Shown here: in pieces, positions 2,427 to 36,172 of the stretch
Layout of the letters: the number at the start of each line of letters is the position of its first letter
Position numbering within the stretch: the first letter of the stretch is position 1
From: an uncultured bacterium
GTDB lineage: Bacteria > Verrucomicrobiota > Verrucomicrobiia > Verrucomicrobiales > DEV007
DNA: 64,000 nt
NCBI GenBank assembly: GCA_963977015.1
Contig: CAXBMO010000016.1
Location: forward strand, 32,001-96,000
Direction of reading: 5' to 3'
Translations under genes and position numbers: made by a program
Notes under the pieces: generated by a model
Database searches by the model: none
Told to the model about the DNA's origin: nothing
The model's input: the letters and a program-made list of their open reading frames with translations, nothing else

Positions 2427-2605
2427 GATGGGAAATGAGAGCGCAGAAATTCAAGGGGGGAAAGTTCCCATTTCCCACCGATGGACATCCCCTGGGTTCC
2501 CCAATCCATGATTGGAGCCGATCCTGAAACCGCCGCCTGCGATTCCGGTAATTGATGTGGACGGTTGACAGGACGCGTGGGGAGTGGATGCTCCCGCCCC
2601 TTTTT

Positions 2606-3769: not shown

Positions 3770-3827
3770 AGCATTTCAAGTGGTACTGTCGCCAATGGAG
3801 CGAGGAGACTTGGTTTCCTGCAAGGTG

Positions 3828-4860
3828 TTGGACGCGCTGGTCTGAAAGGCCAGAACCTGCCAGCCCGGGGGTGCGCGAGCCCAAGTGAGCAACGCCCCGG
3901 GTCAAGACGCCCACAATCCCAAACGCTGAACGCGCGAGACAACCGCTCCCTCGGAGCCTCAACACGCACGTAGATTCGACTGGCAGTCGAATCCAAACAT
4001 CCCCCAAGCCCGCAATCGCGTTGACCCGATAGAAAGCCCAAGCATTCCCGCCCGGGATGACGCCCCCCTGCCCCGCAGCAAGACTACGGCAACGCCGTTG
4101 CGCACGAACAGCCCGCGGTTGCCAAGCGCAACGCAGGCTACTCTGGGAACTCGAGCCACCAATACATCCAACTCTGAAGGAGTCGCGAAAGCGTTAAGAA
4201 CCCCTTCCGGGATCATCCGCCAACCTGATAAAGTTTCCCGAGAGAGGGCTTCGCTTCCGGCAGGGCTGCCCAAAGCCTTCCGCAATCCCTACAGGATTGA
4301 ATCCGCTCTGGTCCCGGGAACCCCAGCGTAGCCTTCGGCAACACTGGGCTGTTCGTACGAAATCCCGTTGGGATTTACCCATCCGAACCGTCACCTGATT
4401 TGGACGGGACATTTGGACGCGCTGGCCTGAAAGGCCAAAACATGCCAGCCCGGGGTGCGCGAGCTCAAGCGAGCAACGCCCCGGGTCAAGTCGCCTACAA
4501 TCCCAAGCACTGAAAGCGCGAGACAACCGCTCCCCGGAAGCCAAAACACGCAAAGGTAGATTCGACTGGCAGTCGAATCCAACCATCCCCCAGCCCACAA
4601 TCGCGTTGACCCGATAGAAAGCCCAAGCGTTCCCGCCCGGGATGACACCTCCCCGCAGCAAGACTACGGCAACGCCGTTGCGCACGAAAAGCCCAGGGTT
4701 GCCAAGCGCAACGCAGGCTACCCTGGGAACTCGAGCCACCAGCCCGTCCAACTCTGAAGGAGTTGCGAAAGCGTTAGGACCCCATCCGCCAACCCGATGA
4801 AGCTTCCCGAGGGAGGCGGTCACTACCGGCAGGGCCGCCCGAAGCCTTCGGCAACACTGG
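3828..4860. repeat. Tandem duplication (period 585 bp) of a composite REP/REPIN-like hairpin element
   Basis: Copies start at 3828 and 4413 (ttggacgcgctgg). Each has GTAG plus the palindrome GATTCGACT-GGC-AGTCGAATC (3970, 4556), GGCC-TGAAA-GGCC-type hairpins and CAACTC-TGAAG-GAGTTG-type hairpins. Confidence 0.9.
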
Positions 4861-4936
4861 CAGGTTTTCGAAAAACTCCGCGCCGCCTCGAAGCCAGTTC
4901 ATTTGGGCAGGGCAATTTTGCTTCGCGTGGTTTCGG

Positions 4937-5031
4937 TTCCAGCCGACCTTGCCTACGGCGAGAATCCCGGTGAAGGACGCCCCGGCGGCATGCTGGTCCT
5001 TGACGTCGAGCTGCTCGAGATCGTTCGTTAG
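4937..5031 (+). repeat. Direct repeat of the last 95 bp of the FKBP gene (3675-3769)
   Basis: Ungapped manual alignment gives 6 mismatches in 95 nt and ends at the equivalent TAG. Confidence 0.95.
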
Positions 5032-5050
5032 CAGACTCTTCTTCCGGGAG

Positions 5051-6850
5051 TTATTGAATTAGCAGACCCACCATCGCGGCGGCCGCGACAATGACAGCAA
5101 GCATGGCAAAATAGAGAATGCACGCGACTCCGATAAGCGCCGTGTAGCTTTTTCGATTTTGAGTTTGAAGAACCGGCGTTTCTCCTTTTCGAAGTTGCCA
5201 GTAGGGTTCGAGAACTTTGTCGAGATCGCAAGCTCCCCGACGGAACAGCCACTGGATCGGGTTGCGGTAGAAATTGGGTAAGGCGATCGCCTCATAATTT
5301 CCGTCTTCCTTACGACCGAAGGCAAGAAAGAGGGCGTCGTCAATCGTACGGGGAAGTTCACAGTCGAAGTGACTCTCCAAATGAATCCGGAAGTCGTCAT
5401 ACATCGATTGGTCTTGGCAGGTAGCCAACGAAATGAGAACGGTGCCAGGATCCTGAAGCTCAAAAACTCGAACGATCTCCCATTCCAAGCCTTCAGAATC
5501 TCCGGGTTGAATGATGACGTGGGCCGCATTTTGAATCAACTCACGGAGCGCGTCCTGCCAACCGTGATCCGGAAGGTAGAAGCGTTCGGCCCCGCCCGTC
5601 ATAATGCGTTCTCCGGGACGGCCACAGGTCACAAGTCGGCCAATCTTGCGCCACGTGAAGGCGAGTTGCTCCTCCGCCGTGTCCGTTGGTTGGGAAAAAG
5701 CCAGGCGAAGAATCCGGTTCGGGTTGAGATTGGAAATGATGGACCATAGACCGCCCTTGGGCGCCCGAACGCCAAGCAGAATGGCTCCAAACCCTTTGGG
5801 TTCAAAGGACGGCATCTGGTGATCGTCATCGAAAGAACGAAGGACCAACGTATATTGATCTTTCTCCAAATTTGTGGCCTCGACAATCTTCAGCCCAATC
5901 CGGTAACCGAAATACATCAGCAGCGAAGAAAATACAAACCCCAGGGTAATTCCATCTTCGAAGTCATCGCTGACGAGCGTGTACCCAAAGATCAAAAAGC
6001 TAACCGGAAGAGAGAGAATCCCAAGAGTTCGCAGGATGACTCCAATGGGACGATTGCGAAACGGCCGACGATGGGATTGATCTTTTTTCTCCTTGGTCAG
6101 GCCTTTGCGAAACACCTTGAACCGGCTCCAATGAACCGCATTTGATACGAAGATGGTGTAGTAGATCACGGCCCCCACCGCCACCAGTCCGATTGCGATA
6201 CCTCTCGTCAAACCAAGCACCGCGCTCGAACCCTGCGTCGAAATCAAGACCTGGCTACCGATCAAAGCCACGACCGAGATCCAGAACCAGATCGCCAGCC
6301 ATCGTGGACCATGATTGAGGGGGAGCGGCTCCATCGTCTCCGTGACGACTCCTTCACTGGTCACACGGCGGAGCGCCGACAAAAAGGTGTTCTTGCCAGT
6401 TGGTGCAAGCAATGCGGAGTGAGTCTCTCCACCCTTGGTTTCGACTACCAACGGGTAGCCGGCAGACTTATTGGTGGTATTGGGTGGCCGAATCCATGAA
6501 TAAGGCCCGACTTGGGCGGAGCTGATTTCATCGTAGGAAATCAACGTCTTTTCACCAATGCTCTTGATTGAATTCAACGTTTGACGAACCTCGTCTGCGT
6601 CTGACAAATCACAGTCTTCCAGCTTCCACTCCGCCTTTCGAAAGCGGAAAATCAGAATTCCATCGGGAAAGAGGGCTACGATCTGTTGAACGGCCGAAAA
6701 CCGGAGCAGTGAAAAGCCGATCGCGCGATGTCGAATCATTGGCACCCATCGATGCCACGGAATGGGCTCACTTCGCTTCCGTAATCTTGGTTCCGCGCTA
6801 GGCGGCGATTCATCGCCCACTGCCTGGCCACCATCCAAGTCCTGCTTCAT
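5051..6850 (-). CDS. Hypothetical multi-pass membrane protein with conserved cytoplasmic alpha/beta domain
   Basis: Start moved to ATG 6850. About 4 central TM helices plus 1 C-terminal TM helix; LVLRSFDDD...GRPGE...GAERFY...WQ...GLEWE motif set. Confidence 0.75.
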   Translation of the reverse strand: MKQDLDGGQAVGDESPPSAEPRLRKRSEPIPWHRWVPMIRHRAIGFSLLRFSAVQQIVALFPDGILIFRFRKAEWKLEDCDLSDADEVRQTLNSIKSIGEKTLISYDEISSAQVGPYSWIRPPNTTNKSAGYPLVVETKGGETHSALLAPTGKNTFLSALRRVTSEGVVTETMEPLPLNHGPRWLAIWFWISVVALIGSQVLISTQGSSAVLGLTRGIAIGLVAVGAVIYYTIFVSNAVHWSRFKVFRKGLTKEKKDQSHRRPFRNRPIGVILRTLGILSLPVSFLIFGYTLVSDDFEDGITLGFVFSSLLMYFGYRIGLKIVEATNLEKDQYTLVLRSFDDDHQMPSFEPKGFGAILLGVRAPKGGLWSIISNLNPNRILRLAFSQPTDTAEEQLAFTWRKIGRLVTCGRPGERIMTGGAERFYLPDHGWQDALRELIQNAAHVIIQPGDSEGLEWEIVRVFELQDPGTVLISLATCQDQSMYDDFRIHLESHFDCELPRTIDDALFLAFGRKEDGNYEAIALPNFYRNPIQWLFRRGACDLDKVLEPYWQLRKGETPVLQTQNRKSYTALIGVACILYFAMLAVIVAAAAMVGLLIQ

Positions 6851-6983
6851 GGAATGAGAAGTATCTGACTTTGCTCCCTTTGTGAAGTCCAAAACTGACT
6901 TCACAATTGAATTCCCCGACTCCCCCTGTCTTCTCCGGAAAACTTTTCTGGCGTTTTCAGTCCCCCACGGAAATCTTGGTGTC

Positions 6984-7460
6984 ATGACAGTTCGCGCCAT
7001 CCCCCAGGGTCTGTTTACCTGGAATTTCGAGATTCGGAAAGCCGATAACGTGGTGGGAATGACCACCTACCGGATCTTCGGGGAGTCGGGAGAACTCAGC
7101 CTGGGCGAGCGGCAGTTCGTGGTCGAACGGCAGGGCCCCCTGAGCGGGCAATGGCGCCTGGCTCAACGCAACGGACCAGAGTTGGCGGTCGCGCAGAAGG
7201 CCAATGCGTTCACCCGGCGAATCGAAATGAAGTGGCTCGAAGCCGGGAGCGTCCTGACGATGGAAGGCGTCAATCCCTGGTCCAGAACGATGAAGATCAC
7301 GGCCAACGGAAATCTCCTCGGGAGGATCGTGCCGGATCATTTGTTCACCCGGAAGTCGACCCTGGAATTCGGCGAAGACGTTCCCATGGAGATTCAGCTA
7401 TTTTGCCTGTGGCTGGCCGTGATGTTGTGGCGGAGAGCCGCGAACAACAGCAGCGGTTAG
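6984..7460 (+). CDS. Hypothetical protein (LURP-one/scramblase/tubby-C-like beta barrel)
   Basis: Repeated beta-strand pattern ending in a hydrophobic C-terminal helix (IQLFCLWLAVMLW); ATG 6984. Confidence 0.65.
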   Translation: MTVRAIPQGLFTWNFEIRKADNVVGMTTYRIFGESGELSLGERQFVVERQGPLSGQWRLAQRNGPELAVAQKANAFTRRIEMKWLEAGSVLTMEGVNPWSRTMKITANGNLLGRIVPDHLFTRKSTLEFGEDVPMEIQLFCLWLAVMLWRRAANNSSG

Positions 7461-7468
7461 ACGTCCCG

Positions 7469-7825
7469 TTACTTGAAGCAGAAGTCGTCTTGCCTGAGGA
7501 GCTCGAATGCCCCATTCGGGCCGACGTGGTAAATCTCGAGGCAAAACTCTCCGATCCCAAGAGAGCGAAAGGCGACCTTTTCCCCTTCGTGACCGCCCGG
7601 CAGTGCCTTGAGCAGCACACCATCCCGCGCTCCTTCCAACCACATGAAGTCGGGTTGGCCTTCAATGGTGATTCGTCCCACCTCAACCAAGCCGGAGAGA
7701 ACTTGAACTTTGGAACCCACATCATCGACATAGGCAAACGAAGGTTCCGGTTCCGCGAAACCCGTGAGGTCGATTTCATAGTCGGCCCCCCGCGTGATCG
7801 AGAGAAGTTGAATGGGCGTTTTCAT
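7469..7825 (-). CDS. Hypothetical protein (118 aa)
   Basis: Only the 3' part of the 7469-8818 ORF fills the intergenic gap. Protein-like composition from ATG 7825 (MKTPIQLLSITRG). Confidence 0.55.
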   Translation of the reverse strand: MKTPIQLLSITRGADYEIDLTGFAEPEPSFAYVDDVGSKVQVLSGLVEVGRITIEGQPDFMWLEGARDGVLLKALPGGHEGEKVAFRSLGIGEFCLEIYHVGPNGAFELLRQDDFCFK

Positions 7826-7849
7826 GTCTGAAGAAGCAGGTTTATTTGG

Positions 7850-10465
7850 TTGAACCAGAGCTTTCCGAACAAAGACTACCACGTCCCGATGTCGATTCAC
7901 CCTTCTTCGAAAACAGCCCCGTTTCGGGATCAAATGCGCTTCTCGAAGCCGTGGCGTTCCTACCAGGCCCGCGTGCTGGAGAAGCTGCCGGTTTTTCTCA
8001 AGGACCGGCATTTTCACCTGGTGGCGGCCCCGGGTTCCGGAAAGACCGTGATCGGGCTGGAGATTGTTCGCCAGCTTTCCCTGCCGACCCTGGTCCTGGC
8101 TCCGACGATCGCGATTCGGGAACAGTGGATCGATCGGCTGACGCGCGACTACACCCGAGACGAAACACCGGACTGGGTGTCGCGTGATCTTGCGGAACCC
8201 CGATTGCTGACGATCAGCACCTACCAATCTCTCAGCACCGAATTCCGAAATGGGGACGGTGGCGCAGAACTCATTGCCCGACTGCGGGATTCGGGCGTCT
8301 CCGTGCTCGTGGTCGACGAAGCGCATCATCTGCGCGCCGTCTGGTGGAAGTGCCTGACGACGATCAAAGATGCGCTGGCGAAGCCGACCGTCATCTCCCT
8401 GACCGCGACCCCGCCGATCGACGTTCCCCAGGCTGAGTGGAATCGTTATGCGGCTTTTTGCGGACAGGTCGACATGGAGGTCGGCGTCCCGGAACTGGTG
8501 GCGGAGGGGAACCTCTGCCCTCACCAGGACTACGTCTTGCTCAGCATCCCCGAAGGCGAGCATGTCGAGGAACTGCGTCGATTTCGCGTGGGTGTTTCCC
8601 AGCTCATTCTGGATCTTCAACTCGACATCGACCTGGCGGAAAAACTGGGGCGGACCTGTCCGGTGCAATGGATTGCGAATGAGGACAGTCGCGACTTTGT
8701 GCGGGAGCAGCAGGCCTTTTACCTGGCTCTGGCGATTTTTCTGCAAAAGGTCGGCGGCTACATCCCGACCTGCCTTCGTAAAACGCTCCATATCGATGGT
8801 GAAGAGTTGCCCGCCCAACTGGACCGAGACTGGACGACCGCCCTGCTTCAGGGGCTGCTGTTTGATTTCCGCGAGAGAATCCTCCTAACCAAAGGTGTTG
8901 ATCCAGACCTGGGGCAAAGACTGTCCGAACTCGAAAAGCAACTCCGGCATTTGGGAGCGATCGAGAAGCAGCGCGTCGTCCTCAGCAGCAACGAGGAGAA
9001 CGACAAACTCCTCCGGGAGTCCCCGGCCAAACTCCAGAGCATTGCCCAAATCATCGAGCATGAATTCGACGCCCAAAGCATCCTCATGCGCGCGGTCATC
9101 CTCACCGATCACATTCGGAAGGACGCCTTTCCGTCGCCGAGCACGTCCGGTCCCCCGCTCGTGAAACTTGGCGTTGTGCCGATCTTCGAACTGCTGCGGC
9201 GGATCCGTTTATCGGCCTTTCAACTCGGCGTCTTGTCGGGCAGCCTGATTGTCATCCCCAAAACGAGCGGCGAACGATTTCGCGCCATTGCCGACCAATC
9301 CGGAATCGCCCCGGAAAAGTTGACGCTGAAACCCTTGCCGCATGATCCCGGCTACGTGGAGGTGGTGATTCGCGACGCGGATCGTCAACGGGCCGTCTCT
9401 GCCGCGACGCAGCTGTTTCAAGACGGCGAGATCCACTGCCTGGTGGGAACGGCTTCGCTCCTCGGCGAAGGCTGGGACGCCCCTGCGGTGAACACCCTGA
9501 TCCTCGCCTCGGTCATTGGTTCCTTTGTGATGTCGAATCAGATGCGGGGACGAGCCATCCGTGCGGACGCGGCGGTTCCTGACAAAACCGCAAACATCTG
9601 GCACGTCGCCACGGTTCCTCCAGACTTTGGCGATGGCTCGTTTGAGCACGGTCGCGATTTCGCGAGACTTGCGCGCCGGTTTGAAGCCTTTCACGGGGTT
9701 GGATTTCATCTGGAGGAGGAAGGTCACGCCGTGATCGAGAATGGATGGCGTCGCCTCGGTTTCCGCTCCTCGATGAAGGCAGGCGAGCTTCAGGCGTTAA
9801 ACCATGAGATGTTTCGGCAGGCCGAGGACCGGGACAACATGCGTCACATCTGGAGTTCCGCGATCGCTCCAGCCAGGGATGGTCGCTTCCTTCGTCCCGT
9901 CCGGGTCTTGAATGCTCCCCCGCGAGTCGTCTCGAACCGGTTCATTGCACGAGTCGCCGGGAAATCAGAGAGCGGGCTCAGGTTTGGCCTTGCCGACTGG
10001 CTCGAGCGACGCCGGCTTCAACGCATCTCCCGCGCCATTTTTCTGGCCCTGCAGGACTGCGGGGAATTGCCGGGTCGATACCACGCCAGCCAGTTGAGAA
10101 TGATTTCCGGCAAGAAACGACGGACCATTTCCGCGCCGGATCTCGAACCCGAGCACCAGACGGTTTTCATCACTGCGCTGGGCGAGTTTTTCGACATCTT
10201 CTCAAACCCGCGTTACCTAATTGAGCAAGGCGGCCGGTGGTTCGCGGTTCCCACGGTCCTGGGAGCCAAGCGGGAGCACGTCGATCACTTTTCCAAACGC
10301 CTGCGAAGGGGACGATTCGGAACCCATACGATTCACTACGTTCACGGCGGAAGAGGCGAAGACCACCTGCTCGAAGCTCGCAAACAATCGCTGCTCCGCC
10401 ACTTCGATTTCAAGACCGAGACCAAGGTTCACTGGGAAGCCTCGGGCACGAAGCAACTGGGATAA
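7850..10465 (+). CDS. SF2 DEAD/DEAH-box helicase (ResIII-like)
   Basis: Q-motif RSYQ, Walker A APGSGKT, DEAH, TATP, GEGWD, motif VI QMRGRAIR. The start may be at ATG 7889. Confidence 0.88.
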   Translation: MNQSFPNKDYHVPMSIHPSSKTAPFRDQMRFSKPWRSYQARVLEKLPVFLKDRHFHLVAAPGSGKTVIGLEIVRQLSLPTLVLAPTIAIREQWIDRLTRDYTRDETPDWVSRDLAEPRLLTISTYQSLSTEFRNGDGGAELIARLRDSGVSVLVVDEAHHLRAVWWKCLTTIKDALAKPTVISLTATPPIDVPQAEWNRYAAFCGQVDMEVGVPELVAEGNLCPHQDYVLLSIPEGEHVEELRRFRVGVSQLILDLQLDIDLAEKLGRTCPVQWIANEDSRDFVREQQAFYLALAIFLQKVGGYIPTCLRKTLHIDGEELPAQLDRDWTTALLQGLLFDFRERILLTKGVDPDLGQRLSELEKQLRHLGAIEKQRVVLSSNEENDKLLRESPAKLQSIAQIIEHEFDAQSILMRAVILTDHIRKDAFPSPSTSGPPLVKLGVVPIFELLRRIRLSAFQLGVLSGSLIVIPKTSGERFRAIADQSGIAPEKLTLKPLPHDPGYVEVVIRDADRQRAVSAATQLFQDGEIHCLVGTASLLGEGWDAPAVNTLILASVIGSFVMSNQMRGRAIRADAAVPDKTANIWHVATVPPDFGDGSFEHGRDFARLARRFEAFHGVGFHLEEEGHAVIENGWRRLGFRSSMKAGELQALNHEMFRQAEDRDNMRHIWSSAIAPARDGRFLRPVRVLNAPPRVVSNRFIARVAGKSESGLRFGLADWLERRRLQRISRAIFLALQDCGELPGRYHASQLRMISGKKRRTISAPDLEPEHQTVFITALGEFFDIFSNPRYLIEQGGRWFAVPTVLGAKREHVDHFSKRLRRGRFGTHTIHYVHGGRGEDHLLEARKQSLLRHFDFKTETKVHWEASGTKQLG

Positions 10466-26049: not shown

Positions 26050-28122
26050 TCAGATCCTGCGCAGCAACCAGAAAACGAATCCGACCCACAGGACCGCGGC
26101 GGTGGTTCTCCATTCGTAAAGCGTTGGCAACGTGCACAGATCAAAGGAAATCGCGGGCACCTTCGCAACCAGAAAACTTAATCCCCAACCGACCACACCA
26201 ATCACGAGCGGGAACGCGACAAAGTTCCGCAGAATCCCCCCTTTGCGACGATAAGCCCGTTGGGAAATCGCGATCCGGAGATATCCAACCAAGGCCAGCG
26301 CTCCAAGGAGCGGGACAAGCAACGACTTCCGTGGGGTCCACCAGGATGGGAGCTCCACCGCCTTGGGCCAGTGTTGGAGAATCAGCATCGGAACGACACC
26401 GAGCAATCCAACGACGAGAACCGCCCAAACCAGGACGTTTCCCCAGCTCAACAGCCAGACGAACGCCGGCCAGGGATGCGTGCGATTTGGCTTCACCCTC
26501 TCCGTCGGGACTGGGAGGTTGGCAAACTCGCTTTTGTCGTTCAGCAGGACAAAGTCCGCGATCGTATCCCAGAATTTCTCCACTTTCCCAGCACCGTGGG
26601 AACCCGTCGCATATTCCAGATTGAAGACCGGCCCGTCCTCCGTCGCCTGATCGAATCCATTGTGGCTCGCGCCGCCCAGGTCCTGCAAATTGTAGAGATC
26701 AAAGAATCGCGGAAACCACGCCACCACCAGATCGCTGGTCGCCGTAAGATTCAACACGTTCGACGCCTGCTTCGCCTCGATGCGCTCCATCCAATTGTAA
26801 TTCTCCCGGACGATACTACCGGCAAAGACAATATTGTGAAAACGGCAGTTCGAATAGGTCTCCAGCGCCTTGGCCAGAACATAGGTGCCGTGGCTATGCC
26901 CTATGTAGCTGAACTTCGCGTTCGGATATTTGGCTTTCGTTTCGAGGTAACGCTCCATCAACCAGCCAACCTTGCTCCAGCGGATCGCCGGAATCAGAAA
27001 CGGCCCCATTCCAAAGTAGCCGTAGCTTTCGACCACCTTTTCCATCGTTTCCTTCTCGGAGTCCTTCGCCCGCTTCCAAACGCGCCGCGCAATCTTGTCG
27101 GTCCAATGCCCTTCGTCACGGATTCCATGGATCACGAACACCACGTGCTCGACGTTCCTTCGCCGCTCCAGTTCCTTGCTGGAAATTTCCCGCAATTCCC
27201 AGGGGCGAACCTCTTCGCGCTTCAACTCTTCATCACTGTAGGTCAGTGCCTGTTTCAACTTCTCCCGACGATGCTGCTCTTCGGGACTAATTCCCCGTTT
27301 TCGTTTCGTGAGCCCCATGTGCAGGATGTTGAGGTGCCCGGTCTTGGCCACATCCAGGTAACGAAACGCCTGTCCGGTTTCAAAGTCGATGTTGTCTTCC
27401 GGGCCAACGATGTCATCGACCGAGCCCAACAACTGAACCGTGTGGGGAAGCGGCGGCGCTTCACCCTTTGCCGAACGTTGTTCCTCCTCCAGCCAATCCA
27501 ACCGCATTTGGGTGAGAAATTTCGCGCCGCGTTCTCCGGAAGACAGGGTGAATTTCACCCAGGGCAGAAAAAACTCGATCGTTTTGGCGATCAACATCCC
27601 GGTCATCATCTTGACGACGCGCATTGGCCCCATGTGCCTGTTGACGGCGAATCCGCGGTTCACCGCAGCCAACAAGACCAACCGGTCCTCACCCGAAGTC
27701 TCGCCCCAATAGCGCCGTCCGGTCGCCGTCCAGCGCTGCTTCTCCGCCTCGTCCCAATGCTCCATCCTGCGACGGATGTAGGTCAGGAGGGCGCGGACGT
27801 AGATCCCCCCCATGCTGTGACCGATGATGTGCAGGCGAGTGTAAGTTCCCCGCTCCCAAATCTGATCCAGATCGTGGGTCAGATTCGAAAGAATCTTGTC
27901 AGGAGCCACCTGGGTAAACGGTTTGCGCCACGGCGCGATCGGCGCCCAGACATCCGCATCCGGACAGGCATCGAGCGAGGCCTCAATCACCGGGTCCAGA
28001 TGCTTCCATGAATTGAGAATCCCCGGCACAATCATCACCAGGGTTTCCTTGTCGCCTTCAAGCTTCGATTGCCCCTGACGATCGATCGTCCCCGTTTTCT
28101 TCACTGGAAGTTTGAGCCTCAT
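26050..28122 (-). CDS. Membrane-anchored protein with two tandem alpha/beta-hydrolase domains
   Basis: GHSMG and GHSHG nucleophile elbows, VPGI and IHGI oxyanion strands, about 4 C-terminal TM helices. Confidence 0.75.
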   Translation of the reverse strand: MRLKLPVKKTGTIDRQGQSKLEGDKETLVMIVPGILNSWKHLDPVIEASLDACPDADVWAPIAPWRKPFTQVAPDKILSNLTHDLDQIWERGTYTRLHIIGHSMGGIYVRALLTYIRRRMEHWDEAEKQRWTATGRRYWGETSGEDRLVLLAAVNRGFAVNRHMGPMRVVKMMTGMLIAKTIEFFLPWVKFTLSSGERGAKFLTQMRLDWLEEEQRSAKGEAPPLPHTVQLLGSVDDIVGPEDNIDFETGQAFRYLDVAKTGHLNILHMGLTKRKRGISPEEQHRREKLKQALTYSDEELKREEVRPWELREISSKELERRRNVEHVVFVIHGIRDEGHWTDKIARRVWKRAKDSEKETMEKVVESYGYFGMGPFLIPAIRWSKVGWLMERYLETKAKYPNAKFSYIGHSHGTYVLAKALETYSNCRFHNIVFAGSIVRENYNWMERIEAKQASNVLNLTATSDLVVAWFPRFFDLYNLQDLGGASHNGFDQATEDGPVFNLEYATGSHGAGKVEKFWDTIADFVLLNDKSEFANLPVPTERVKPNRTHPWPAFVWLLSWGNVLVWAVLVVGLLGVVPMLILQHWPKAVELPSWWTPRKSLLVPLLGALALVGYLRIAISQRAYRRKGGILRNFVAFPLVIGVVGWGLSFLVAKVPAISFDLCTLPTLYEWRTTAAVLWVGFVFWLLRRI

Positions 28123-28205: not shown

Positions 28206-28233
28206 TTGACCTTGCGCGATTTCGTAGTACAAT
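28206..28233 (+). promoter_or_regulatory. Putative sigma70 promoter of the toxin-antitoxin operon
   Basis: TTGACC (28206) - 16 bp - TACAAT (28228), 8 nt upstream of the GTG start. Confidence 0.6.
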
Positions 28234-28241
28234 GTTTTACC

Positions 28242-28472
28242 GTGATCAAGACCATCAAAAAAATCGGCAACTCCAAGGGCATCATCCTCGACGCTGCGCT
28301 GCTCGAACTGGCGCATCTGAAGGAGGGTGATGAGCTTTCGGTAACCGTTCATGACGGTGGGGCGCTGACGTTTACGCCGGTGCAAGCTCGGAATTTTAGC
28401 GATGAGGAATTCGATGCCGCAACGAAGAAGGCGCTCGATGACTACACCAACACTCTGAAAAAGCTCTCGTGA
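28242..28472 (+). CDS. AbrB/MazE-family antitoxin
   Basis: IKKIGNSKGIIL swapped-hairpin motif; immediately upstream of the Doc gene. Confidence 0.88.
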   Translation: MIKTIKKIGNSKGIILDAALLELAHLKEGDELSVTVHDGGALTFTPVQARNFSDEEFDAATKKALDDYTNTLKKLS

Positions 28473-28476
28473 GCAG

Positions 28477-28878
28477 ATGATGAAAGACGAGATTCGTCAC
28501 CCCACACTCGAGCAAATTCGACGACTGCACCGTGCCGTTCTCGTCCAGCACGGAGGTAGCGACGGGATTCGAGATCTGGCACTGCTGGAGAGTGCCCTCG
28601 CAGCACCTCAAGCCACGTTCGGGGGTGAACCGATCATGTCTGATTTGGTGGAGATCGCGGCGGCTTATCTCTTTTATCTTTGCCGCAATCATCCCTTCAT
28701 CGATGGCAATAAACGAGTGGGATTGGCAACGTGTATCGTTTTCTTGAGGCTAAACGGCCTCGAACCGCCCCCGGATGGGCCTCTCTGGGAGGAACTCGTC
28801 CTCGACGTTGCCGCTTCAAAGTTGGATCGGGAGACGACGACGGAGCGATTGCGGGAGTTGCTGTGCACCAAGGGATGA
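28477..28878 (+). CDS. doc: Fic/Doc (death-on-curing) toxin
   Basis: GIRD..LLESAL..P and HPFIDGNKR Doc-type motif. Confidence 0.92.
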   Translation: MMKDEIRHPTLEQIRRLHRAVLVQHGGSDGIRDLALLESALAAPQATFGGEPIMSDLVEIAAAYLFYLCRNHPFIDGNKRVGLATCIVFLRLNGLEPPPDGPLWEELVLDVAASKLDRETTTERLRELLCTKG

Positions 28879-29769: not shown

Positions 29770-30320
29770 CGTCGTTCCCTGCGAAATGTCCCCAACCAAA
29801 CGCGGAAGATTCCCGGAAGTAAAACTCGGCATCGTCAAAGTAATTGCCAACCAGATTATAGCGCGCGGGAGCAGCCATGTAGGACCAGTCATCATCCCAT
29901 TTGTAGAAGTCGGCGTTGTAGGCTGGCGCGTTTCCACTTTGGGAGATGAAATTGAAGCGAATATCGAAAATCGGACCGGCGGGCGTCCCCGGATCCGGAA
30001 TACCCGTTTGAGTAATCGATAGATAGGAACCGGAGGAACCGACCCGCGGTGTCCAGCCATTGTTGTGATTGTGCCACACGTTGTGGTGGAAGCTGTGACG
30101 GGAGCGCACCTGCGCGGTTTCGAGACGCCCGCGAAGGGGCGTCCCGATGGCGTGGTCGAACGGTTTGCTAACCTTCCCATTTTTTGGTGGGGGATTGGGC
30201 CCTATTCCGACGCTGTCGGCAATCAGGCTCCATTGTACGGTGACTCGGCCGGATTCGTTGATCGAGAGGGTTTCGTCCGTGGCCCAGGACGCCGAAATGT
30301 GGTCGAGGATGACATAAAAA
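29770..30320 (-). pseudogene. Internal fragment of a PL1-type pectate lyase (beta-helix)
   Basis: VILDHISASWATDE, VTVQWSLI, FHHNVW, TPR, FDIRFN and YNLVGNYF motifs; no start or signal peptide. Confidence 0.7.
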
Positions 30321-30353
30321 AGGCCCGTCCCCAATAACCATTCGGTTGTCTCT

Positions 30354-30623
30354 TCCCGCGCGGGTATCGACGCGGTCCGGGCTGTGCTCGTAGCGTGCCG
30401 CGCCGCAGAGCTGATCGGCCTCCAAGTCGAGCAGGGCGTTGAGGGTGTCCTCCACGCTCTTGCGCACCATCTCATCGAGGTGGCCGCGAATCTCGCCTTC
30501 GTTGATTTCAACGATTTTGCCCGCGATCCGGGCTTCTCTTTCGGTTTTTGGTTCGGTTGTCATTTTGGGTCTGTTAGTTCAGAACACCAAAAAGTAAATG
30601 TGCGAAAGAAATCCTACGTTATC
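30354..30623 (-). mobile_element. Truncated IS256-family element (transposase N-terminus plus putative terminal repeat)
   Basis: ATG 30563: VEDTLNALLDLEADQLCGAARYE...DTRAG, then abrupt loss of similarity. IS256-like end sequence aaatgtgcgaaagaaatcctacgttatc at 30596-30623. Confidence 0.8.
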
Positions 30624-30727
30624 CAATGCCGATAGCAATGAGGGTCGTTCGTTTCGTGGTTCTGCGCTTCTTTCATAGTGGTGTTTCGGGCGTCAGGTTT
30701 TCTCACGTTCTAGCCGTCGATCTCCAC

Positions 30728-30894
30728 GAGCTCGGTCACAAAGCCGAGGTCAACAAGGTTCACGTCAACGACCTCCACGCCACGATTCTGCATCAGCTAG
30801 GGCTCGATCACGAGAAACTGACCTACACCTACGCCGGTCGGAGGTTTCGGCTGGCCGATGTTGGGGGGCATGTGATCCGCGTATTGTCAGCTAG
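30728..30894 (+). pseudogene. Orphan 3' tail of a DUF1501 gene (copy 1)
   Basis: [47 protein letters not shown], a typical DUF1501 C-terminus; the rest of the gene is absent. Confidence 0.85.
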
Positions 30895-30969
30895 CCTAGG
30901 AGCAATATCTCGATCCCGATCGCCCACCAAATGAAGTGGCCGGAGAAGTGTAACCATTTCCTACGAACT

Positions 30970-31767
30970 TCAATACTTTGACTTGAATTTACCAGAGTAG
31001 CGCGCAGCTACAACAATAAACAGAACAATGAGTAACGCACCTCCGAAAAATACAATCAGTCCGGTCGTGCCACCTTCATCTCCCTCATTCCCAACAGTTA
31101 CGCCCGGTGATAATGCTTCACCTTGATCCACCCTAACAGCCGGAAGTTGATCACTCTCTTTTCCCGCGCCAACAACGCTTCCATCCTGTCCAATACTTTC
31201 AGGCAATGGCCTCCCGCTATTTTGGCGAGCCAAAACCACGTTTCTTACCAAATCACCCCTCTTGGCCTTTAAAAAGAGCAGTTCGTAGTCTGTCCCAACC
31301 GCGACTTCAAGAACATCGTCCAACAACTGCTGCACTCTTGAGGATTTGTAGTTGAAGGCAACAAAACCGTCTTTTTCGCCTTGGCCAATCACTGCGCGAA
31401 AAACAACCTCCGGAGCAAGGTCTCCCTGCTTAACAAACTGTATCGCCGCTTCCAAGACTTCTAGGTATTCCTCAGAAGAAAGGGCTTCGCAAACACGGAG
31501 GATAACAAGCTGCTCCTTAGGTGTGGGTGCTACTTCTGAAAGGTGTGTGTCGAAGATACCTCGCCAACTGTCTGCAATATTTTCAAGTATTGCTAACTCA
31601 TCGTGATTTGGATTGCGTCGAACAAAACCGTCACTTCGATCAGTGATAACTACAGCTCCATTTTCACTAACTGATGCCTTGCTGAGAATACTTTGAACGT
31701 TCTGTATATCAGACGAAACAAGAATTGTGACTGCTATTGAAAATAGTGATATTGCGATTGGATTCAT
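30970..31767 (-). CDS. Exported helical protein with C-terminal membrane anchor; candidate immunity protein
   Basis: N-terminal hydrophobic leader, C-terminal TM helix with basic tail, ATGA overlap with the upstream gene, AT-richer than the flanks. Confidence 0.7.
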   Translation of the reverse strand: MNPIAISLFSIAVTILVSSDIQNVQSILSKASVSENGAVVITDRSDGFVRRNPNHDELAILENIADSWRGIFDTHLSEVAPTPKEQLVILRVCEALSSEEYLEVLEAAIQFVKQGDLAPEVVFRAVIGQGEKDGFVAFNYKSSRVQQLLDDVLEVAVGTDYELLFLKAKRGDLVRNVVLARQNSGRPLPESIGQDGSVVGAGKESDQLPAVRVDQGEALSPGVTVGNEGDEGGTTGLIVFFGGALLIVLFIVVAARYSGKFKSKY

Positions 31768-34256
31768 TCTTTGAAGCGCCCAAAATGTGAAGGTTGATAA
31801 TTCATATCGATACTTAGGTGTACAGATTTATTTACGTCTATTGACCCCGCACCGATCCAACTGCCATCGTAGTCAAGGATACCCATATGGCCTTGGCCTC
31901 CTACAATACCGATTGAGATCGTTCCGATACCTTCGGTCCAAGTTACAATATCGCCGGGCTGGGGGGTTGTGTTGTTACTCAACCATTGCCAACCTTCGAT
32001 CAAGTAGATGGAACTCCACCAATCAACCGCCCCGGGCGGAACTTCACGCGGCGTAAAATCCACATCCGGCCAACCTAACGGTGCACCGGTTGTTGTCCCT
32101 ACATCGGAGGTTGAAAAATCAAAATCGTTCCATGTCTTTGTCGGTATTGTAGCATCAACCGAATTTGCCCTTTCAAAAACAAACAAATTACACTTATAGC
32201 TACCTATGAAATCAAGAGTTGGATCCACTCCATATCCCGGCTTGAAAGCCGACGACTTGGCGTATTCGGTACTCCCAAGCTTCGAAACGGCTGCATTACG
32301 GATTTCAAGTTGTTTTTGGGTTTCTACCACACCAAAAAAATCTAGTTCCCCTTTTCTGAGGTTCTCGCTGTAAAGCCCTCCTGAATTCTCACCGTGCGGT
32401 GCGTCAATTGAACGGACAAAGTTTACAGCCGTTTCTCCAGTTGTCGTATCAACTATAACCCTTGTCTGAAAAATCCCTGTTTCGGTAGCGAAATGTAAAT
32501 ATTTCTGACCTCGTGCATGAGTACCTAAAGAGGCCCAGGGTGTGAACCCACCGTCTCCTTGAAGTTGGCGTGCCTGCCAAAAAATAAAATGTGAAGGGAT
32601 TTCATCATATTCGATTCCTTCCAGCGTAAAATCTATCATTTCCATTTGTTTCACAACTAGACCGTTTTCAGGGGGAGCCGAGTCGTTGTGGCGTTTGATT
32701 TCTATCCTTAGTTCCAACAACGTCCACTCCACAAACACATCCTGATAATACCATTGCCCATCTTGAATTCCACCGAGATGACGGGGGTCAGGATTAATCA
32801 ACAAGGGCTCCGAGACCACCGCTCCGGCCGGGACAATCAATTTTTCGATCCTTGTGATCGGTTCATCCTGCCCCCAATAAACTCTCTCCTTGACCAGAAC
32901 CAACTGAGAGAAGTCTTCCTCCATGGGTTCAGCCAATCGCAAACGCACTCGTTGGGAGGTGCTAAACCACGAAGAGGGTCCATGACCGTCGTCAACTTCA
33001 AACCCACTTGAGGAATGGGCGGTTCCTTGATCCGCTGGAGTCCAGTCCGTGATGATTTGCCTTCCGTTCTCCTCCAGGTAAATCTCGTCGTACTCCAACC
33101 ACCAGGGACCGTATAAATAGGCCTCCGGCCCTGGATCAACCGGTTGAAATCCATCTCCACCCGATCCCGATCCTGAATCTGATCCATCACCGGAATCCGT
33201 CGAACTTCCATCGGGTCCGCCCTCATCGGAAGGTGAGGGATCAGGCGACGTGCCTGGGCCACCACCCAGAGAATTCTCTTCCGACGAAGCTGGGTCCGTC
33301 GAATCAGGCCCCTCCTCGGGGCCATCAGATTCCTCCGAACTCGGCGGATCGTCAGGATTCCTTGGGTCCGTGCCAAACACGAAAACTTCATCTCCATCAA
33401 AATGACCATCTCCATCGGTATCGGCGAGATGATCCCAAGTCTGGTGAACGATTTCCTGAGCCAACGTCAACCCGTCAGAATCGATATCGCTTTCCCCATC
33501 CTGCGGCAAAAGCGGGTGATAGGGATATTGAGCTTCCAGTTGATCATTGAGGCCGTCTCCATCCGTATCGGCCAACCAAGGATCGGTGTAGACAAAAATG
33601 GGATCGACGGCACCTCCAAAATTCACTCCTGGTTTGCGAGCCTGTTCGCTGACCGGGTCGATCGCGTAGGTCCAATAGCCGTCCAGTTCCAGGAGATCGG
33701 GAATTCCATCTCCATCAGAATCCTCCAGGTCATGGTAATCGGCCGGATACGAGTCAGGATTGAGAAAGGAAAGATCCGGCCAGTTGGAATTTTCCCATTC
33801 ATTACCATCCGGATCGGTAGGATTGGCGACTGTTTCCTCTCCCTCCGTTTCGGGCGAGTAGTCTTCGTACGAACCTGAATCTTCCGGGTAAGTCTCACCC
33901 TCGTAATACCCTTCGCTATCCGAGTAGCCTTCTGATCCATCGTCAATTCCTTCCGATCCGTCGTAGTAGCTGTCAGTATCGGTTTCTTCACCGTAGGAAT
34001 CCCAGCCATAGTCGGTATCAGGATCTTCGTAGTATTCAGAATCCGTCGATGAATCGTAAGCGTAAGGGTCGTAACCTTCTCCGTAATATTCGTCCCAATA
34101 ATCGTCTTCGTAGTAGTCGTAAGAACCGTCGTCCTGCGCCTGAAGCAGGACCATGGTGAAAACCCCAAGGACAACTACCATCCCGACCTGAGGGCCTCTT
34201 GTTCGAAAACGTTGCAGCAACAAATTCCTGACTCTACGCATATCTACCTTGATCAC
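31764..34256 (-). CDS. Large secreted acidic protein with DxDxDG (TSP3-like Ca-binding) repeats and C-terminal NlpC/P60-CHAP-like domain; candidate toxin
   Basis: Signal peptide; DSDGDG, DTDGDG x2 and DIDSDG repeats; YKCNLFV...PQPGDIV...GHMGI. The start may be ATG 34241. Confidence 0.78.
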   Translation of the reverse strand: MIKVDMRRVRNLLLQRFRTRGPQVGMVVVLGVFTMVLLQAQDDGSYDYYEDDYWDEYYGEGYDPYAYDSSTDSEYYEDPDTDYGWDSYGEETDTDSYYDGSEGIDDGSEGYSDSEGYYEGETYPEDSGSYEDYSPETEGEETVANPTDPDGNEWENSNWPDLSFLNPDSYPADYHDLEDSDGDGIPDLLELDGYWTYAIDPVSEQARKPGVNFGGAVDPIFVYTDPWLADTDGDGLNDQLEAQYPYHPLLPQDGESDIDSDGLTLAQEIVHQTWDHLADTDGDGHFDGDEVFVFGTDPRNPDDPPSSEESDGPEEGPDSTDPASSEENSLGGGPGTSPDPSPSDEGGPDGSSTDSGDGSDSGSGSGGDGFQPVDPGPEAYLYGPWWLEYDEIYLEENGRQIITDWTPADQGTAHSSSGFEVDDGHGPSSWFSTSQRVRLRLAEPMEEDFSQLVLVKERVYWGQDEPITRIEKLIVPAGAVVSEPLLINPDPRHLGGIQDGQWYYQDVFVEWTLLELRIEIKRHNDSAPPENGLVVKQMEMIDFTLEGIEYDEIPSHFIFWQARQLQGDGGFTPWASLGTHARGQKYLHFATETGIFQTRVIVDTTTGETAVNFVRSIDAPHGENSGGLYSENLRKGELDFFGVVETQKQLEIRNAAVSKLGSTEYAKSSAFKPGYGVDPTLDFIGSYKCNLFVFERANSVDATIPTKTWNDFDFSTSDVGTTTGAPLGWPDVDFTPREVPPGAVDWWSSIYLIEGWQWLSNNTTPQPGDIVTWTEGIGTISIGIVGGQGHMGILDYDGSWIGAGSIDVNKSVHLSIDMNYQPSHFGRFKE

Positions 34257-34655: not shown

Positions 34656-34783
34656 TTCGCAACCATCGGGAAGAATGACTCTCTCGGTCCCTTTTCAAGA
34701 ACCGTTCGTCATGCGGTATTTTTACCAAAACATGCGGCCTCCTTCATTGCGTGCTGTTTGTTCTTCGAGCATGCTTTCATGCC

Positions 34784-36172
34784 ATGTTCGACTTTCTCGC
34801 TGAAACCCCTGGAGATCATGCTCGGCTCTGCGCTGGAAAGAACCGGCGCGAATTTCTCCAAATTGGCGCGCTTGGCGCCGCCGGACTTTCGCTCCCCCAA
34901 TATCTTGCGGCGAAGCAGAATGGCGCGGTCAAACCCGGTCATGATAACCGTTCGTGCATCATGATCTTCAACCTCGGGGGCCCCAGCCACATCGATCTGT
35001 GGGACATGAAACCCGATGCCCCGAGCGAAATTCGCGGACCCTTCAAGCCCATTCGTACCAACTCACCCGAGATCGACATTTCGGAGATTCTCCCGATGCA
35101 CGCCAAGGTCGCGGACAAGTTTTCGCTGGTGCGCAGTTGTCATCATGGCGGCGCAGCGGTGCATGACGCCGGTTGGCAGATCATGCAGACCGGGCGACGT
35201 TTCACCGGAGGCATTTCGACACCGCACGCCGGAGCGGTGACGAGCTATTTGAAGGGACGAAAAAGCGATCTGCCGCCCTTCGTCGTCCTGCCGGAATTGA
35301 TGGGACGGGGTGGCGGAAATCTACCGAACGGACAGGCCGGCGGATTCCTGGGGAAAGCCCACGATCCCTTTGCGCTGATGGCCGATCCCTCGGTGAAAGA
35401 TTTTGAGGTGCCGGATCTGCTTCCCCCGGATCAGATCGGCGCGGCCCGGCTCGACCGTCGTCGCAAGATGCGCGACATCGTCGAAGAGAGCGTGAAGAAT
35501 TTCGAAGCGAGCGAGGATGCGCGTCTGCTCGACGAAAACTTCCAGGCAGCCTTTCGCATGATGACGAGCGAGCAGGCCCGCAGCGCGTTCGACCTTTCCC
35601 AGGAACCTGAGAAAGTCCGGGAGCGCTATGGGATGAACCGGGTCGGTCAGTGCTTCCTGCTTGCACGCCGCCTCGTGGAGAACGGAGTTCGCTTCGTCAC
35701 CGTGAACACCTTCCTCACGGTGTTCAACGAACTAAGCTGGGACATTCACGGCTCCAAACCCTTCATCAGCGTGAAGCAGATGAAGGAGCAGGTCGCCCCG
35801 ATGTATGACCAGGCCTACTCGGCGTTGCTCGAAGATCTCTTTGATCGTGGATTGTTGGATGACACGCTGGTGACGACGCTCGCGGAATTCGGTCGGACGC
35901 CCAAAGTCAACCCGGCCGGCGGTCGCGATCACTGGCCGCAGTGTTTCACCGTTTCGTTCGCCGGTGGCGGCGTTCAAGGTGGTCAGGTCGTCGGCGCAAG
36001 CGATCCCATTGGCGGTTTCCCTGCCGAGCGGCCCGTCGATCCTGCCGAAGTGGTGGCCACGATTTTCCACAGCCTCGGACTCGACCCGGAAGGCCACCTT
36101 CCCGGCCCTGCCGGACGCCCGTTCCCCCTGGTCGATTTCGGAAACGAGCCCATTCGCGAATTGTTCGGCTGA
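34784..36172 (+). CDS. DUF1501 family protein
   Basis: NRREFL Tat motif; GGPSHIDLWD, ARRLVE.GVRFV, WDIH, EFGRTP and GRDHW. Confidence 0.92.
   Translation: MFDFLAETPGDHARLCAGKNRREFLQIGALGAAGLSLPQYLAAKQNGAVKPGHDNRSCIMIFNLGGPSHIDLWDMKPDAPSEIRGPFKPIRTNSPEIDISEILPMHAKVADKFSLVRSCHHGGAAVHDAGWQIMQTGRRFTGGISTPHAGAVTSYLKGRKSDLPPFVVLPELMGRGGGNLPNGQAGGFLGKAHDPFALMADPSVKDFEVPDLLPPDQIGAARLDRRRKMRDIVEESVKNFEASEDARLLDENFQAAFRMMTSEQARSAFDLSQEPEKVRERYGMNRVGQCFLLARRLVENGVRFVTVNTFLTVFNELSWDIHGSKPFISVKQMKEQVAPMYDQAYSALLEDLFDRGLLDDTLVTTLAEFGRTPKVNPAGGRDHWPQCFTVSFAGGGVQGGQVVGASDPIGGFPAERPVDPAEVVATIFHSLGLDPEGHLPGPAGRPFPLVDFGNEPIRELFG

Follow-up and report, generated by a model that had tools for sequence, protein, structure and literature searches.

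This work concerns a two-gene cassette in the genome of an uncultured bacterium of the order Verrucomicrobiales (DEV007). The window, that is, the whole stretch of DNA that was analysed, has 64,000 nucleotides and corresponds to positions 32,001 to 96,000 of contig CAXBMO010000016.1 (assembly GCA_963977015.1). The cassette consists of two open reading frames (ORFs) on the minus strand, spanning positions 30970-34256 of the window. Gene 1 (31764..34256) encodes 830 amino acids (aa) from a GTG start and is read as an exported carrier that ends in an NlpC/P60-type cysteine peptidase domain, referred to below as the tip. Gene 2 (30970..31767) encodes 265 aa and is read as an exported, membrane-tethered partner, predicted to be an immunity or inhibitor protein. 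In our view, the pair probably specifies a Sec-exported antibacterial peptidoglycan endopeptidase, together with an immunity protein that acts in the periplasm by blocking the active site of the enzyme.

Organization and base composition of the cassette

The two genes share a 4-base ATGA overlap, and the junction reads ...AAAGAATGAATCC...; therefore, their translation is probably coupled. Base composition changes along the cassette. The carrier part of gene 1 has a G+C content of 0.526 (0.522 at third codon positions, GC3), while the last 315 codons, which comprise the tip and the domain preceding it, have 0.457 (GC3 0.406), and gene 2 has 0.458 (GC3 0.385). The corresponding values are 0.571 for the whole window and 0.575 and 0.595 for the flanks of the cassette. 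Thus, A+T content is higher in the cassette than around it, and within gene 1 it is higher in the 3′ third than in the 5′ part. A preliminary description of this DNA, made from its letters, had already pointed to an AT-richer pair of genes joined by an ATGA overlap and to the AT-richness at the 3′ end of gene 1, and both the ORFs and the G+C values agree with it. The elements that it listed in gene 1, namely a signal peptide, an acidic tract, four DxDxDG repeats, a Ser/Gly/Pro linker and the motifs YKCNLFV, PQPGDIV and GHMGI, are all present in the translation.

The tip has an NlpC/P60-type fold

The tip comprises residues 625-830 of gene 1 (31767..32384, minus strand). When it is aligned with 44 short relatives (45 sequences in total), five columns are invariant (C65, P143, H166, D173 and A179) and D171 is nearly so. 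C65 corresponds to Cys689 (codon 32190..32192) and H166 to His790 (codon 31887..31889), the predicted catalytic residues, at the codons where codon arithmetic also places the Cys and His of the preliminary description. D173 is Asp797 (codon 31866..31868), a candidate third catalytic residue. An AlphaFold2 (AF2) model of these last 206 aa, built on the 45-sequence alignment, has a mean predicted local distance difference test (pLDDT) of 87.2. In this model, C65 opens a helix (65-75) and H166 lies on a strand (165-170).

The fold was settled by an exhaustive VIA-align search rather than by Foldseek, which returned no tip match in the PDB at E ≤ 1e-3. The Foldseek rows that were listed are nearly all NlpC/P60 or CHAP hydrolases, with weak E-values (best 5.8e-3). 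In the exhaustive search, 31 chains reach Z-scores of at least 8; these are led by NlpC/P60 DL-endopeptidases, with CHAP endolysins lower. The match to NlpC1 of T. vaginalis (6bim) has Z 12.1 and a root-mean-square deviation of 3.2 over 119 aligned residues, and other matches include 8ev5 (Z 12.0), CwlO (11.1) and LytE (10.9). Every structural match at Z ≥ 9.5 is a peptidoglycan hydrolase. Effectors of type VI secretion systems (T6SS) are also found, namely Tae3 (Z 9.8), Tse1 (7.6) and Tae4 (5.6). At the sequence level, CHAP matches at E < 0.01 occur in 7 of the 45 tip relatives. A search of PDB sequences with the tip profile gave a single row, an aldose epimerase at E 1.3, which was dismissed as chance.

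In the treatment of this superfamily in PMC12994826, circularly permuted NlpC/P60 forms, in which His precedes Cys, target lipids, and the order Cys before His is the canonical arrangement, tied to peptidoglycan peptidases. As modelled, with a papain-like fold and Cys followed by His, the tip is a canonical, non-permuted member. It had initially been described as an NlpC/P60-CHAP amidase occupying the last ~190 aa. Structure searches do give a papain-like NlpC/P60 fold for the model of the last 206 aa, but its closest structures are DL-endopeptidases and not amidases.

Gene 2 and its family

Gene 2 begins with a hydrophobic leader, continues with a predicted periplasmic domain (residues 24-200; 31168..31698, minus strand) made of a small beta element and a helical-repeat domain, and ends in a predicted transmembrane anchor (residues 236-255; 31003..31062, minus strand) followed by the basic tail RYSGKFKSKY. 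The AF2 model (pLDDT 84, rising to 93-98 in blocks within residues 70-190) has the same architecture: a leader helix, a small beta element, helical repeats from 55 to 184, a disordered spacer and an anchor helix at 238-261. An export leader and a C-terminal anchor had also been proposed at the outset. Fold searches with gene 2 gave only generic helical repeats (Z ≤ 7.2), Foldseek found no match in the PDB at E ≤ 1e-3, and a feature atlas gave no usable match for the partner, with tetratricopeptide repeat (TPR)-like rows at template modelling (TM) scores below 0.5. Gene 2 belongs to no Pfam or NCBIfam family, and there is no consistent Pfam match among 50 members of its family; both the tip and the partner families are unnamed in Pfam.

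A word-based search yielded a single gene-2 homologue, at 40% identity. The relationship between gene 2 and other partners becomes apparent from gene position. In 53 of 59 genome loci that encode a tip, an ORF on the same strand begins between -94 and +171 nt from the stop of the tip gene. Forty-seven of the downstream ORFs form one BLAST cluster together with gene 2 (P0002), its homologue P0153 and the ORF downstream of the tip in genome G033. BLASTP alone does not link gene 2 to the G033 ORF (E 0.44), whereas single-linkage clustering and a hidden Markov model (HMM) do. According to the HMM, a partner-family gene lies directly 3′ of the tip in 54 of the 59 loci, and two of the five misses are at a contig edge. 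No third gene family recurs near the pair, the next cluster being found in only 5 of the 59 loci. All 47 partner N-termini that were listed look signal-like, and many of these proteins also have a C-terminal transmembrane segment with a basic tail. The family is otherwise very divergent (mean column identity 16%, with only Met1 invariant), as would be expected from such sequences for a binder rather than an enzyme.

In three loci, a second partner-family match follows soon after the first: it is adjacent in L028 (6438-8378), about 1.1 kb on in L029 (1076-3039) and about 90 nt on in L062 (6532-7896). In these loci, immunity genes may have been duplicated without a second tip.

The interaction between both proteins was modelled with the tip and residues 24-200 of the partner. 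The interaction prediction score from aligned errors (ipSAE) is 0.82 (median of three runs), and the best of three controls gives 0.01. Among 157 solved complexes, 116 attain this mark, as do 2 of 215 mismatched pairs, counts that hold only roughly because self-supplied alignments were used. The runs have at least 65% of their contacts in common, with a partner pLDDT of at least 84. On the tip, the predicted interface includes residues 57-63, 65-66 and 160-166, in other words both predicted catalytic residues, Cys and His, with the positions around them. Binding of gene 2 over the active site is thus supported by the model. Searches of solved structures gave no relative of the partner, which makes it unlikely that the model recalls a known complex. 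In all, its place directly downstream of the tip and a complex model that covers the active site both agree with the role of cognate partner first assigned to gene 2.

Distribution and modularity of the tip family

The last 206 aa of gene 1 were used in an exhaustive HMMER search, which recovered 230 representative clusters with E ≤ 1e-3, of which 114 have E ≤ 1e-10. Among the 150 of these 230 that were listed, a regular expression found the His motif in 139 representatives, in all of which it lies 35-56 aa from the C-terminus. Likewise, the tail that extends past the tblastn match to the tip is 0-31 aa long in 56 of the 59 genome loci. Thus, the tip is found at the extreme end of proteins of very different size (105-2920 aa among those listed), the short forms being scarcely more than a signal peptide and the module. 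In a Pfam scan of 34 tip-bearing proteins, none contained Rhs, LXG, PAAR or VgrG domains, and gene 1 has none either, in keeping with the initial impression that Rhs, LXG and VgrG carriers are absent here. Instead, TSP3_bac is present in 11 of the 34; others carry Big_1, fn3, cadherin, RCC1 or LamG, and many have no match.

The family is concentrated in a few related lineages. By their labels, 55 of the 59 loci belong to Verrucomicrobiota (46), Kiritimatiellia (7) or Lentisphaerae (2), and the remainder to Gemmiger (2), Chryseolinea (1) and an 'uncultured bacterium' (1). They include Akkermansia muciniphila, rumen and gut lineages, and the complete genomes of two culturable Luteolibacter strains (L009 and L056). 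Within these lineages, the tip-partner family is accessory. The tip was found in 11 and the partner in 13 of 401 sampled genomes of the phylum, and the tip in 3 of 61 close relatives (counting the genome of the window) and in 3 of 28 genomes of one genus (g31). The genome of the window has one copy of each.

The carrier of gene 1 has been found in only one other protein, encoded in a genome of the same genus (G001). Residues 179-522 of gene 1 (P0001) align to residues 250-595 of this homologue with 35% identity (E 9e-30), and the homology stops where the module starts. The C-terminus of the G001 protein is unrelated to the tip and contains the sequence HETLH, an HExxH motif; its assignment as a zinc metalloprotease is a lead only (atlas score 0.93). 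The nearest same-strand ORF downstream encodes a signal and a C-terminal transmembrane segment, and it is unrelated to gene 2 (hhalign probability 0.2). In both genes, G+C content falls at the module junction. Hence the variable C-termini and variable downstream genes foreseen in the preliminary description do occur, in one homologue. In the search for further carriers with other tips, a word-based search gave generic TSP3 blocks only, and a six-frame search of 134 family genomes gave only G001.

The sequence LLPV[DE]I.VRKKG was considered as a universal mark of the junction or of recombination. It is present in 12 of 59 loci and in 38 of 105 representatives (strict regular expression), and it was dropped because it is rare and has no match in the protein of the window itself.

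Other genes stand near the G001 homologue (locus L005, contig G001:C32). In the region upstream of the carrier (695-4117), there is a 305-aa ORF whose start is like the end of an Rhs core (YDRETEFGYYGFRYYAPERGHWASRDP) and whose tail is unrelated. It has no Pfam match and, judging by its sequence, looks like the remnant of a second toxin tip, of Rhs type, in the same island. This ORF is followed by a small one with an internal Met (MKIYHLGL...) that opens a lipoprotein-like leader, and then by an IS110-like ORF. On the other side, an IS630-like ORF, also judged from sequence, lies on the opposite strand (7815-8867) between the G001 gene and the ORF with signal and anchor (8963-9844).

Several relatives contain additional copies or remnants of the cassette. 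In L065, the order is tip, partner, a 55-aa tip fragment and a second partner-like ORF. The latter has only a weak BLASTP match to the first partner (21% identity, E 0.056); it nevertheless falls within the BLAST cluster of partners and gives a weak match to their HMM (E 9e-6). In L054, a full gene is followed by two C-terminal tip fragments, each with an ORF after it that has an N-terminal transmembrane segment and belongs to another family. Such arrays are typical of polymorphic toxin loci. In addition, G238 and G491 each have a tip remnant beside an intact partner.

Locus L054 also contains four consecutive ORFs of about 180-286 aa (6480-9310), which alternate with the tip fragments and share an N-terminal transmembrane segment and a QWQV...VVFSN.FFVS domain. 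The first of them copies, in addition, part of the middle region of the main gene (PPEW.G..GLDLT...HISVP[FY]RD). From their sequences, these ORFs look like a different candidate immunity family with a recombination scar.

The carrier region of gene 1

Upstream of the tip, gene 1 can be divided into six regions, all on the minus strand. Residues 1-40 (34137..34256) form the putative export signal, which, as read from the translation, has a basic stretch, the hydrophobic segment VGMVVVLGVFTMVLL and then LQA/QDD. The true start is ambiguous, since translation could begin at the GTG of codon 1 or at the ATG of codon 6 or of codon 26; the database form of the protein uses this internal M26 and has 805 aa. 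The following low-complexity tract (residues 41-175; 33732..34136), likewise read from the translation, is rich in Asp, Glu and Tyr and has no family match in the Pfam scan. It stands directly after the signal peptide and is strikingly Tyr-rich and acidic, with runs such as YDYYEDDYWDEYYGEGYDPYAYD. The G001 homologue also has an acidic tract at the corresponding place, with a different sequence. Metal or mineral binding, or keeping the protein unfolded for export, are possible purposes of this tract.

Residues 176-300 (33357..33731) form a putative Ca-binding block of TSP3-type repeats, with four DxDxDG-type motifs in the translation (DSDGDG at 179, DTDGDG at 231, DIDSDG at 258 and DTDGDG at 280). 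Against Pfam TSP3_bac (PF18884), gene 1 scores 21.4 bits, below the cut-off of 25 bits. The block is 35% identical to that of the G001 homologue, and a word-based search retrieved 672 proteins annotated with PF18884, which match gene 1 in the TSP3 block only (17-52% coverage). Next come a linker rich in Ser, Gly, Pro and Asp (residues 301-375; 33132..33356), read from the translation, and a carrier-specific domain (residues 376-515; 32712..33131) that is common to gene 1 and the G001 homologue only, in 2 of the 134 family genomes of the six-frame search. Finally, a conserved pre-tip domain (residues 516-624; 32385..32711) accompanies the tip in many relatives. The A1 profile matches residues 516-828 of gene 1, and the pre-tip domain aligns in short relatives; it is at the start of this domain that the homology between gene 1 and the G001 protein ends.

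Genomic neighbourhood

The DNA beyond gene 2 contains gene debris, namely a fragment of a Mutator-family transposase (30168-30563, minus strand; PF00872, E 1.4e-6, N-terminal profile positions 8-70 of 379) and the 3′ end of a DUF1501 gene, with its last ~50 residues (30626-30934, plus strand; PF07394, E 1.6e-14, profile positions 337-387 of 390). Upstream of gene 1, on the other side of the cassette, DUF1501 is represented by an intact gene (34751-36172), and the next ORF, of 901 aa, overlaps the end of this gene. The debris at 30168-30934 suggests that the cassette came with or beside a mobile element.

Further beyond gene 2, there are a PAS/AraC pair and a MazE-Doc toxin-antitoxin module (28206-28878, plus strand). 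The latter consists of an 88-aa MazE/AbrB-type antitoxin (PF04014, E 7e-5, below the cut-off) and, 4 nt after it, a 133-aa Fic/Doc protein (PF02661, E 8e-17). A 690-aa protein is encoded at 26050-28122 (minus strand), with two weak alpha/beta-hydrolase regions, lipase- or esterase-like, and several hydrophobic segments towards its C-terminus. In the genome of the window, which is 95% complete, there are seven secretin matches and no match to the T6SS sheath protein VipB/TssC. A prophage endolysin was also considered as an explanation for gene 1 and was rejected, because there is a signal peptide, the carriers are giant and phage genes are absent.

Proposed mechanism and alternative explanations

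As an antibacterial enzyme with its immunity protein, the pair would work as follows. Gene 1 would be exported by Sec, and its adhesin-like carrier (acidic tract, TSP3 repeats, linker and carrier domain) would display or release the C-terminal module. This module, the pre-tip domain and the NlpC/P60 peptidase, would most likely cleave the peptide stems of peptidoglycan in other bacteria, to which it would be toxic. Gene 2, probably co-translated with gene 1, would reach the periplasm by export, and its C-terminal anchor would hold it at the inner membrane. There, it would bind the tip over Cys689 and His790 and in this way spare the wall of the producer from enzyme that is in transit or coming back in. 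The outer membrane may be crossed through one of the secretin systems of the genome. The tip and the immunity gene would move together, joining different carriers by recombination. Of this scheme, computation supports the fold, the invariant Cys, His and Asp, the C-terminal position on varied carriers, the linkage to the partner family, the export signals of the partner, the break in G+C content at the junction and the alternative tip; the complex and the covering of the active site are predictions, and the substrate, toxicity, protection by gene 2 and outer-membrane passage are inferred.

A wider proposal, more tentative and in our judgement somewhat short of an even chance, is that these genes represent a contact-independent polymorphic bacteriolysin system that extends across the Planctomycetes-Verrucomicrobia-Chlamydiae (PVC) group. 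In such a system, the tip cassette, with its new helical-repeat immunity family as a plug for the active site, would be shuffled by recombination at the module junction onto Ca-binding, adhesin-like carriers and released without T6SS, contact-dependent inhibition (CDI), Rhs or type VII secretion (T7SS), allowing interbacterial killing by Verrucomicrobiota, including gut Akkermansia. The carriers would also take other enzymatic tips, such as metalloproteases with anchored immunity proteins of their own.

Several observations weigh against the antibacterial reading. By sequence, the tip stays below the Pfam threshold: of NLPC_P60 and CHAP, only CHAP matches, with 20.6 bits for the whole protein and 23.3 for the tip alone against a cut-off of 26, and a PDB sequence search with the whole gene-1 protein gives no match at E ≤ 10. 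The position usually taken by the third catalytic His is a Gly in the tip, which reads 'IGA' where NlpC/P60 enzymes usually have 'IHA'; the polar third residue of this superfamily can be His, Asn, Glu or Asp, and Asp797 is a candidate replacement, judging by its invariance. Of 43 tip proteins that seemed complete, no more than 22 showed an N-terminal hydrophobic stretch in a crude hydropathy test. The finding of alternative tips on one carrier comes from a single homologue, the carrier domain being present in 2 of the 134 family genomes. The gene of this homologue is split over two overlapping frames, both with TSP3 motifs (4337-5218 and 4855-7806 of L005), and may thus contain a frameshift, be a pseudogene or reflect a faulty assembly. 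The same gene is flanked by two transposase-like ORFs, IS110- and IS630-like as judged from sequence. In the genome of the window, no paralogue, orphan tip cassette or orphan immunity gene was found. Moreover, no known translocation or receptor-binding domain was found that would explain entry into a diderm target. Finally, adhesin-like carriers with immunoglobulin (Ig), cadherin, fn3 or LamG domains would equally suit surface enzymes with no part in antagonism, and the strict linkage between enzyme and inhibitor fits a self-protected exoenzyme equally well.

Such an exoenzyme would degrade free or dead-cell peptidoglycan, or some other extracellular amide, for nutrition or interaction with a host, and gene 2 would block premature activity in transit. 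Secreted proteases with cognate inhibitors, such as AprA/AprI and staphopain/staphostatin, work in this manner. The adhesin- and lectin-like carriers (TSP3, Big_1, fn3, cadherin and LamG), the lack of a detected delivery domain and the many hosts labelled as gut or rumen degraders are consistent with this explanation, as is the G001 tip, if it is a metalloprotease (a lead only), another typical exoenzyme; occlusion of the active site, as predicted, would suit an inhibitor equally. Nevertheless, we regard it as rather unlikely. Orphan tip fragments with extra partners, and tip remnants beside an intact partner, point to selection for immunity itself, while the uneven occurrence inside genera (3 of 28 genomes of g31), the low G+C content and the mobile-element context suit conflict genes better. 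In addition, a peptidoglycan hydrolase let out among bacteria would be lytic anyway. The structural matches raise a different question, that of the substrate, which overlaps with the other explanations. Superfamily membership does not fix it, the usual third His is absent, and the tip also matches Gsp amidase (Z 7.9) and transglutaminase (Z 7.3); it might thus act on a protein, a lipid acyl bond or a small amide. This seems improbable to us, since all matches at Z ≥ 9.5 are peptidoglycan hydrolases and the lipid-targeting members treated in PMC12994826 are circularly permuted, with His before Cys, whereas in the tip Cys comes before His.

The closest structures include endogenous DL-endopeptidases (LytE, CwlO, MepS and RipA), several of them controlled or inhibited by another protein (LytE-IseA, MepS-NlpI), and the partner has a predicted anchor in the inner membrane. 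Both facts would accommodate a housekeeping or morphogenetic autolysin that remodels the wall of its own producer, with gene 2 as a membrane-anchored regulator in space or time. The distribution of the family makes this highly improbable, as the tip is present in just 11 of 401 genomes of the phylum and 3 of 61 close relatives. It also sits poorly with the atypical G+C content, the long and variable carriers of extracellular type (up to 2920 aa), the alternative tip on the same carrier and the orphan fragments. The antibacterial endopeptidase with its immunity protein is, therefore, the explanation that we retain as probable.

Comparison with known systems

The T6SS pairs Tse1-Tsi1, Tae3-Tai3, Tae4-Tai4 and Ssp1-Rap1a are like the cassette in that a papain-like Cys-His enzyme is directed against peptidoglycan and is encoded directly upstream of a periplasmic immunity protein that blocks the active site, a property that in our case is predicted. 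In contrast to these pairs, gene 1 has a Sec signal-like leader and a long TSP3 carrier, its genome has no T6SS sheath match, and gene 2 is a predicted helical-repeat protein with no match to a Tai or Tsi fold, from a family that is often membrane-anchored at its C-terminus. By its Sec signal and the lack of a TssC match in its genome, the cassette falls outside the T6SS effector-immunity pairs. With LytE-IseA and CwlO of B. subtilis and MepS-NlpI of E. coli, the likeness is structural, as these enzymes are among the best matches of the tip (Z 10.9-11.1; 16-24% identity over 111-127 residues), and it extends to control of the enzyme by a partner protein. They are, however, core enzymes of wall growth, while the pair described here is rare, patchy and operon-linked, with atypical G+C content and giant variable carriers. 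Lysostaphin and zoocin A provide a further parallel: they are Sec-released peptidoglycan peptidases that lyse competitors and are encoded beside a gene that protects the producer. Nevertheless, their producers are Gram-positive, their folds are those of M23 metallopeptidases, and protection is achieved by wall modification and not by an inhibitor protein.

The closest precedent in the polymorphic toxin literature is Tox-NLPC/P60 (Zhang et al. 2012, PMC3482391), a domain with C, H and D residues at the toxin C-terminus that is predicted to degrade the wall of the target. The present family shares an NlpC/P60 domain with these three residues at the extreme C-terminus of multidomain proteins. The Tox-NLPC/P60 entry of PMC3482391 refers to Bacteroidetes and delta-proteobacteria, Rhs carriers and export by T6SS, PVC (in this case, the Photorhabdus virulence cassette) or TcdB/TcaC, and it gives no immunity family. 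In contrast, the family described here belongs to Verrucomicrobiota, Kiritimatiellia and Lentisphaerae, a signal peptide is its only export feature, its carriers are of TSP3 or Ig type, and a conserved cognate family of partners accompanies it.

In that same source, polymorphic toxins are characterized by several features, of which the present family displays a C-terminal tip on varied N-termini, an adjacent downstream partner and orphan cassettes in relatives. Alternative C-termini on one N-terminal region, another feature in PMC3482391, are found in one case, G001. The trafficking domains given there (Rhs, CdiA/FilH, LXG/WXG, PAAR/VgrG and MuF) are present in 0 of 34 tip proteins. The preliminary description had suggested that a Sec-exported toxin class might be undescribed. 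As a class, toxins with only a signal peptide are not new, because PMC3482391 already has a category for them, filed under 'T2SS' (type II secretion system); what stands of that suggestion is the pair of families, of which no description was found in the main texts of the open-access papers that were searched. Hence, what appears to be new is the family pair itself, its restriction to the PVC group, its TSP3 and Ig-type carriers and a helical-repeat immunity candidate.

Significance

Interbacterial weapons have been well mapped in Proteobacteria, Bacteroidota and Firmicutes, and barely in the PVC group. The pair would provide Verrucomicrobiota, Kiritimatiellia and Lentisphaerae with a defined antagonism module. 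Since the effector depends on Sec alone, one may also ask how a peptidoglycan hydrolase of such size gets to the wall of a competitor. Finally, the partner, with its predicted plug for the active site, would add a new candidate fold class to the inhibitors of peptidoglycan hydrolases.

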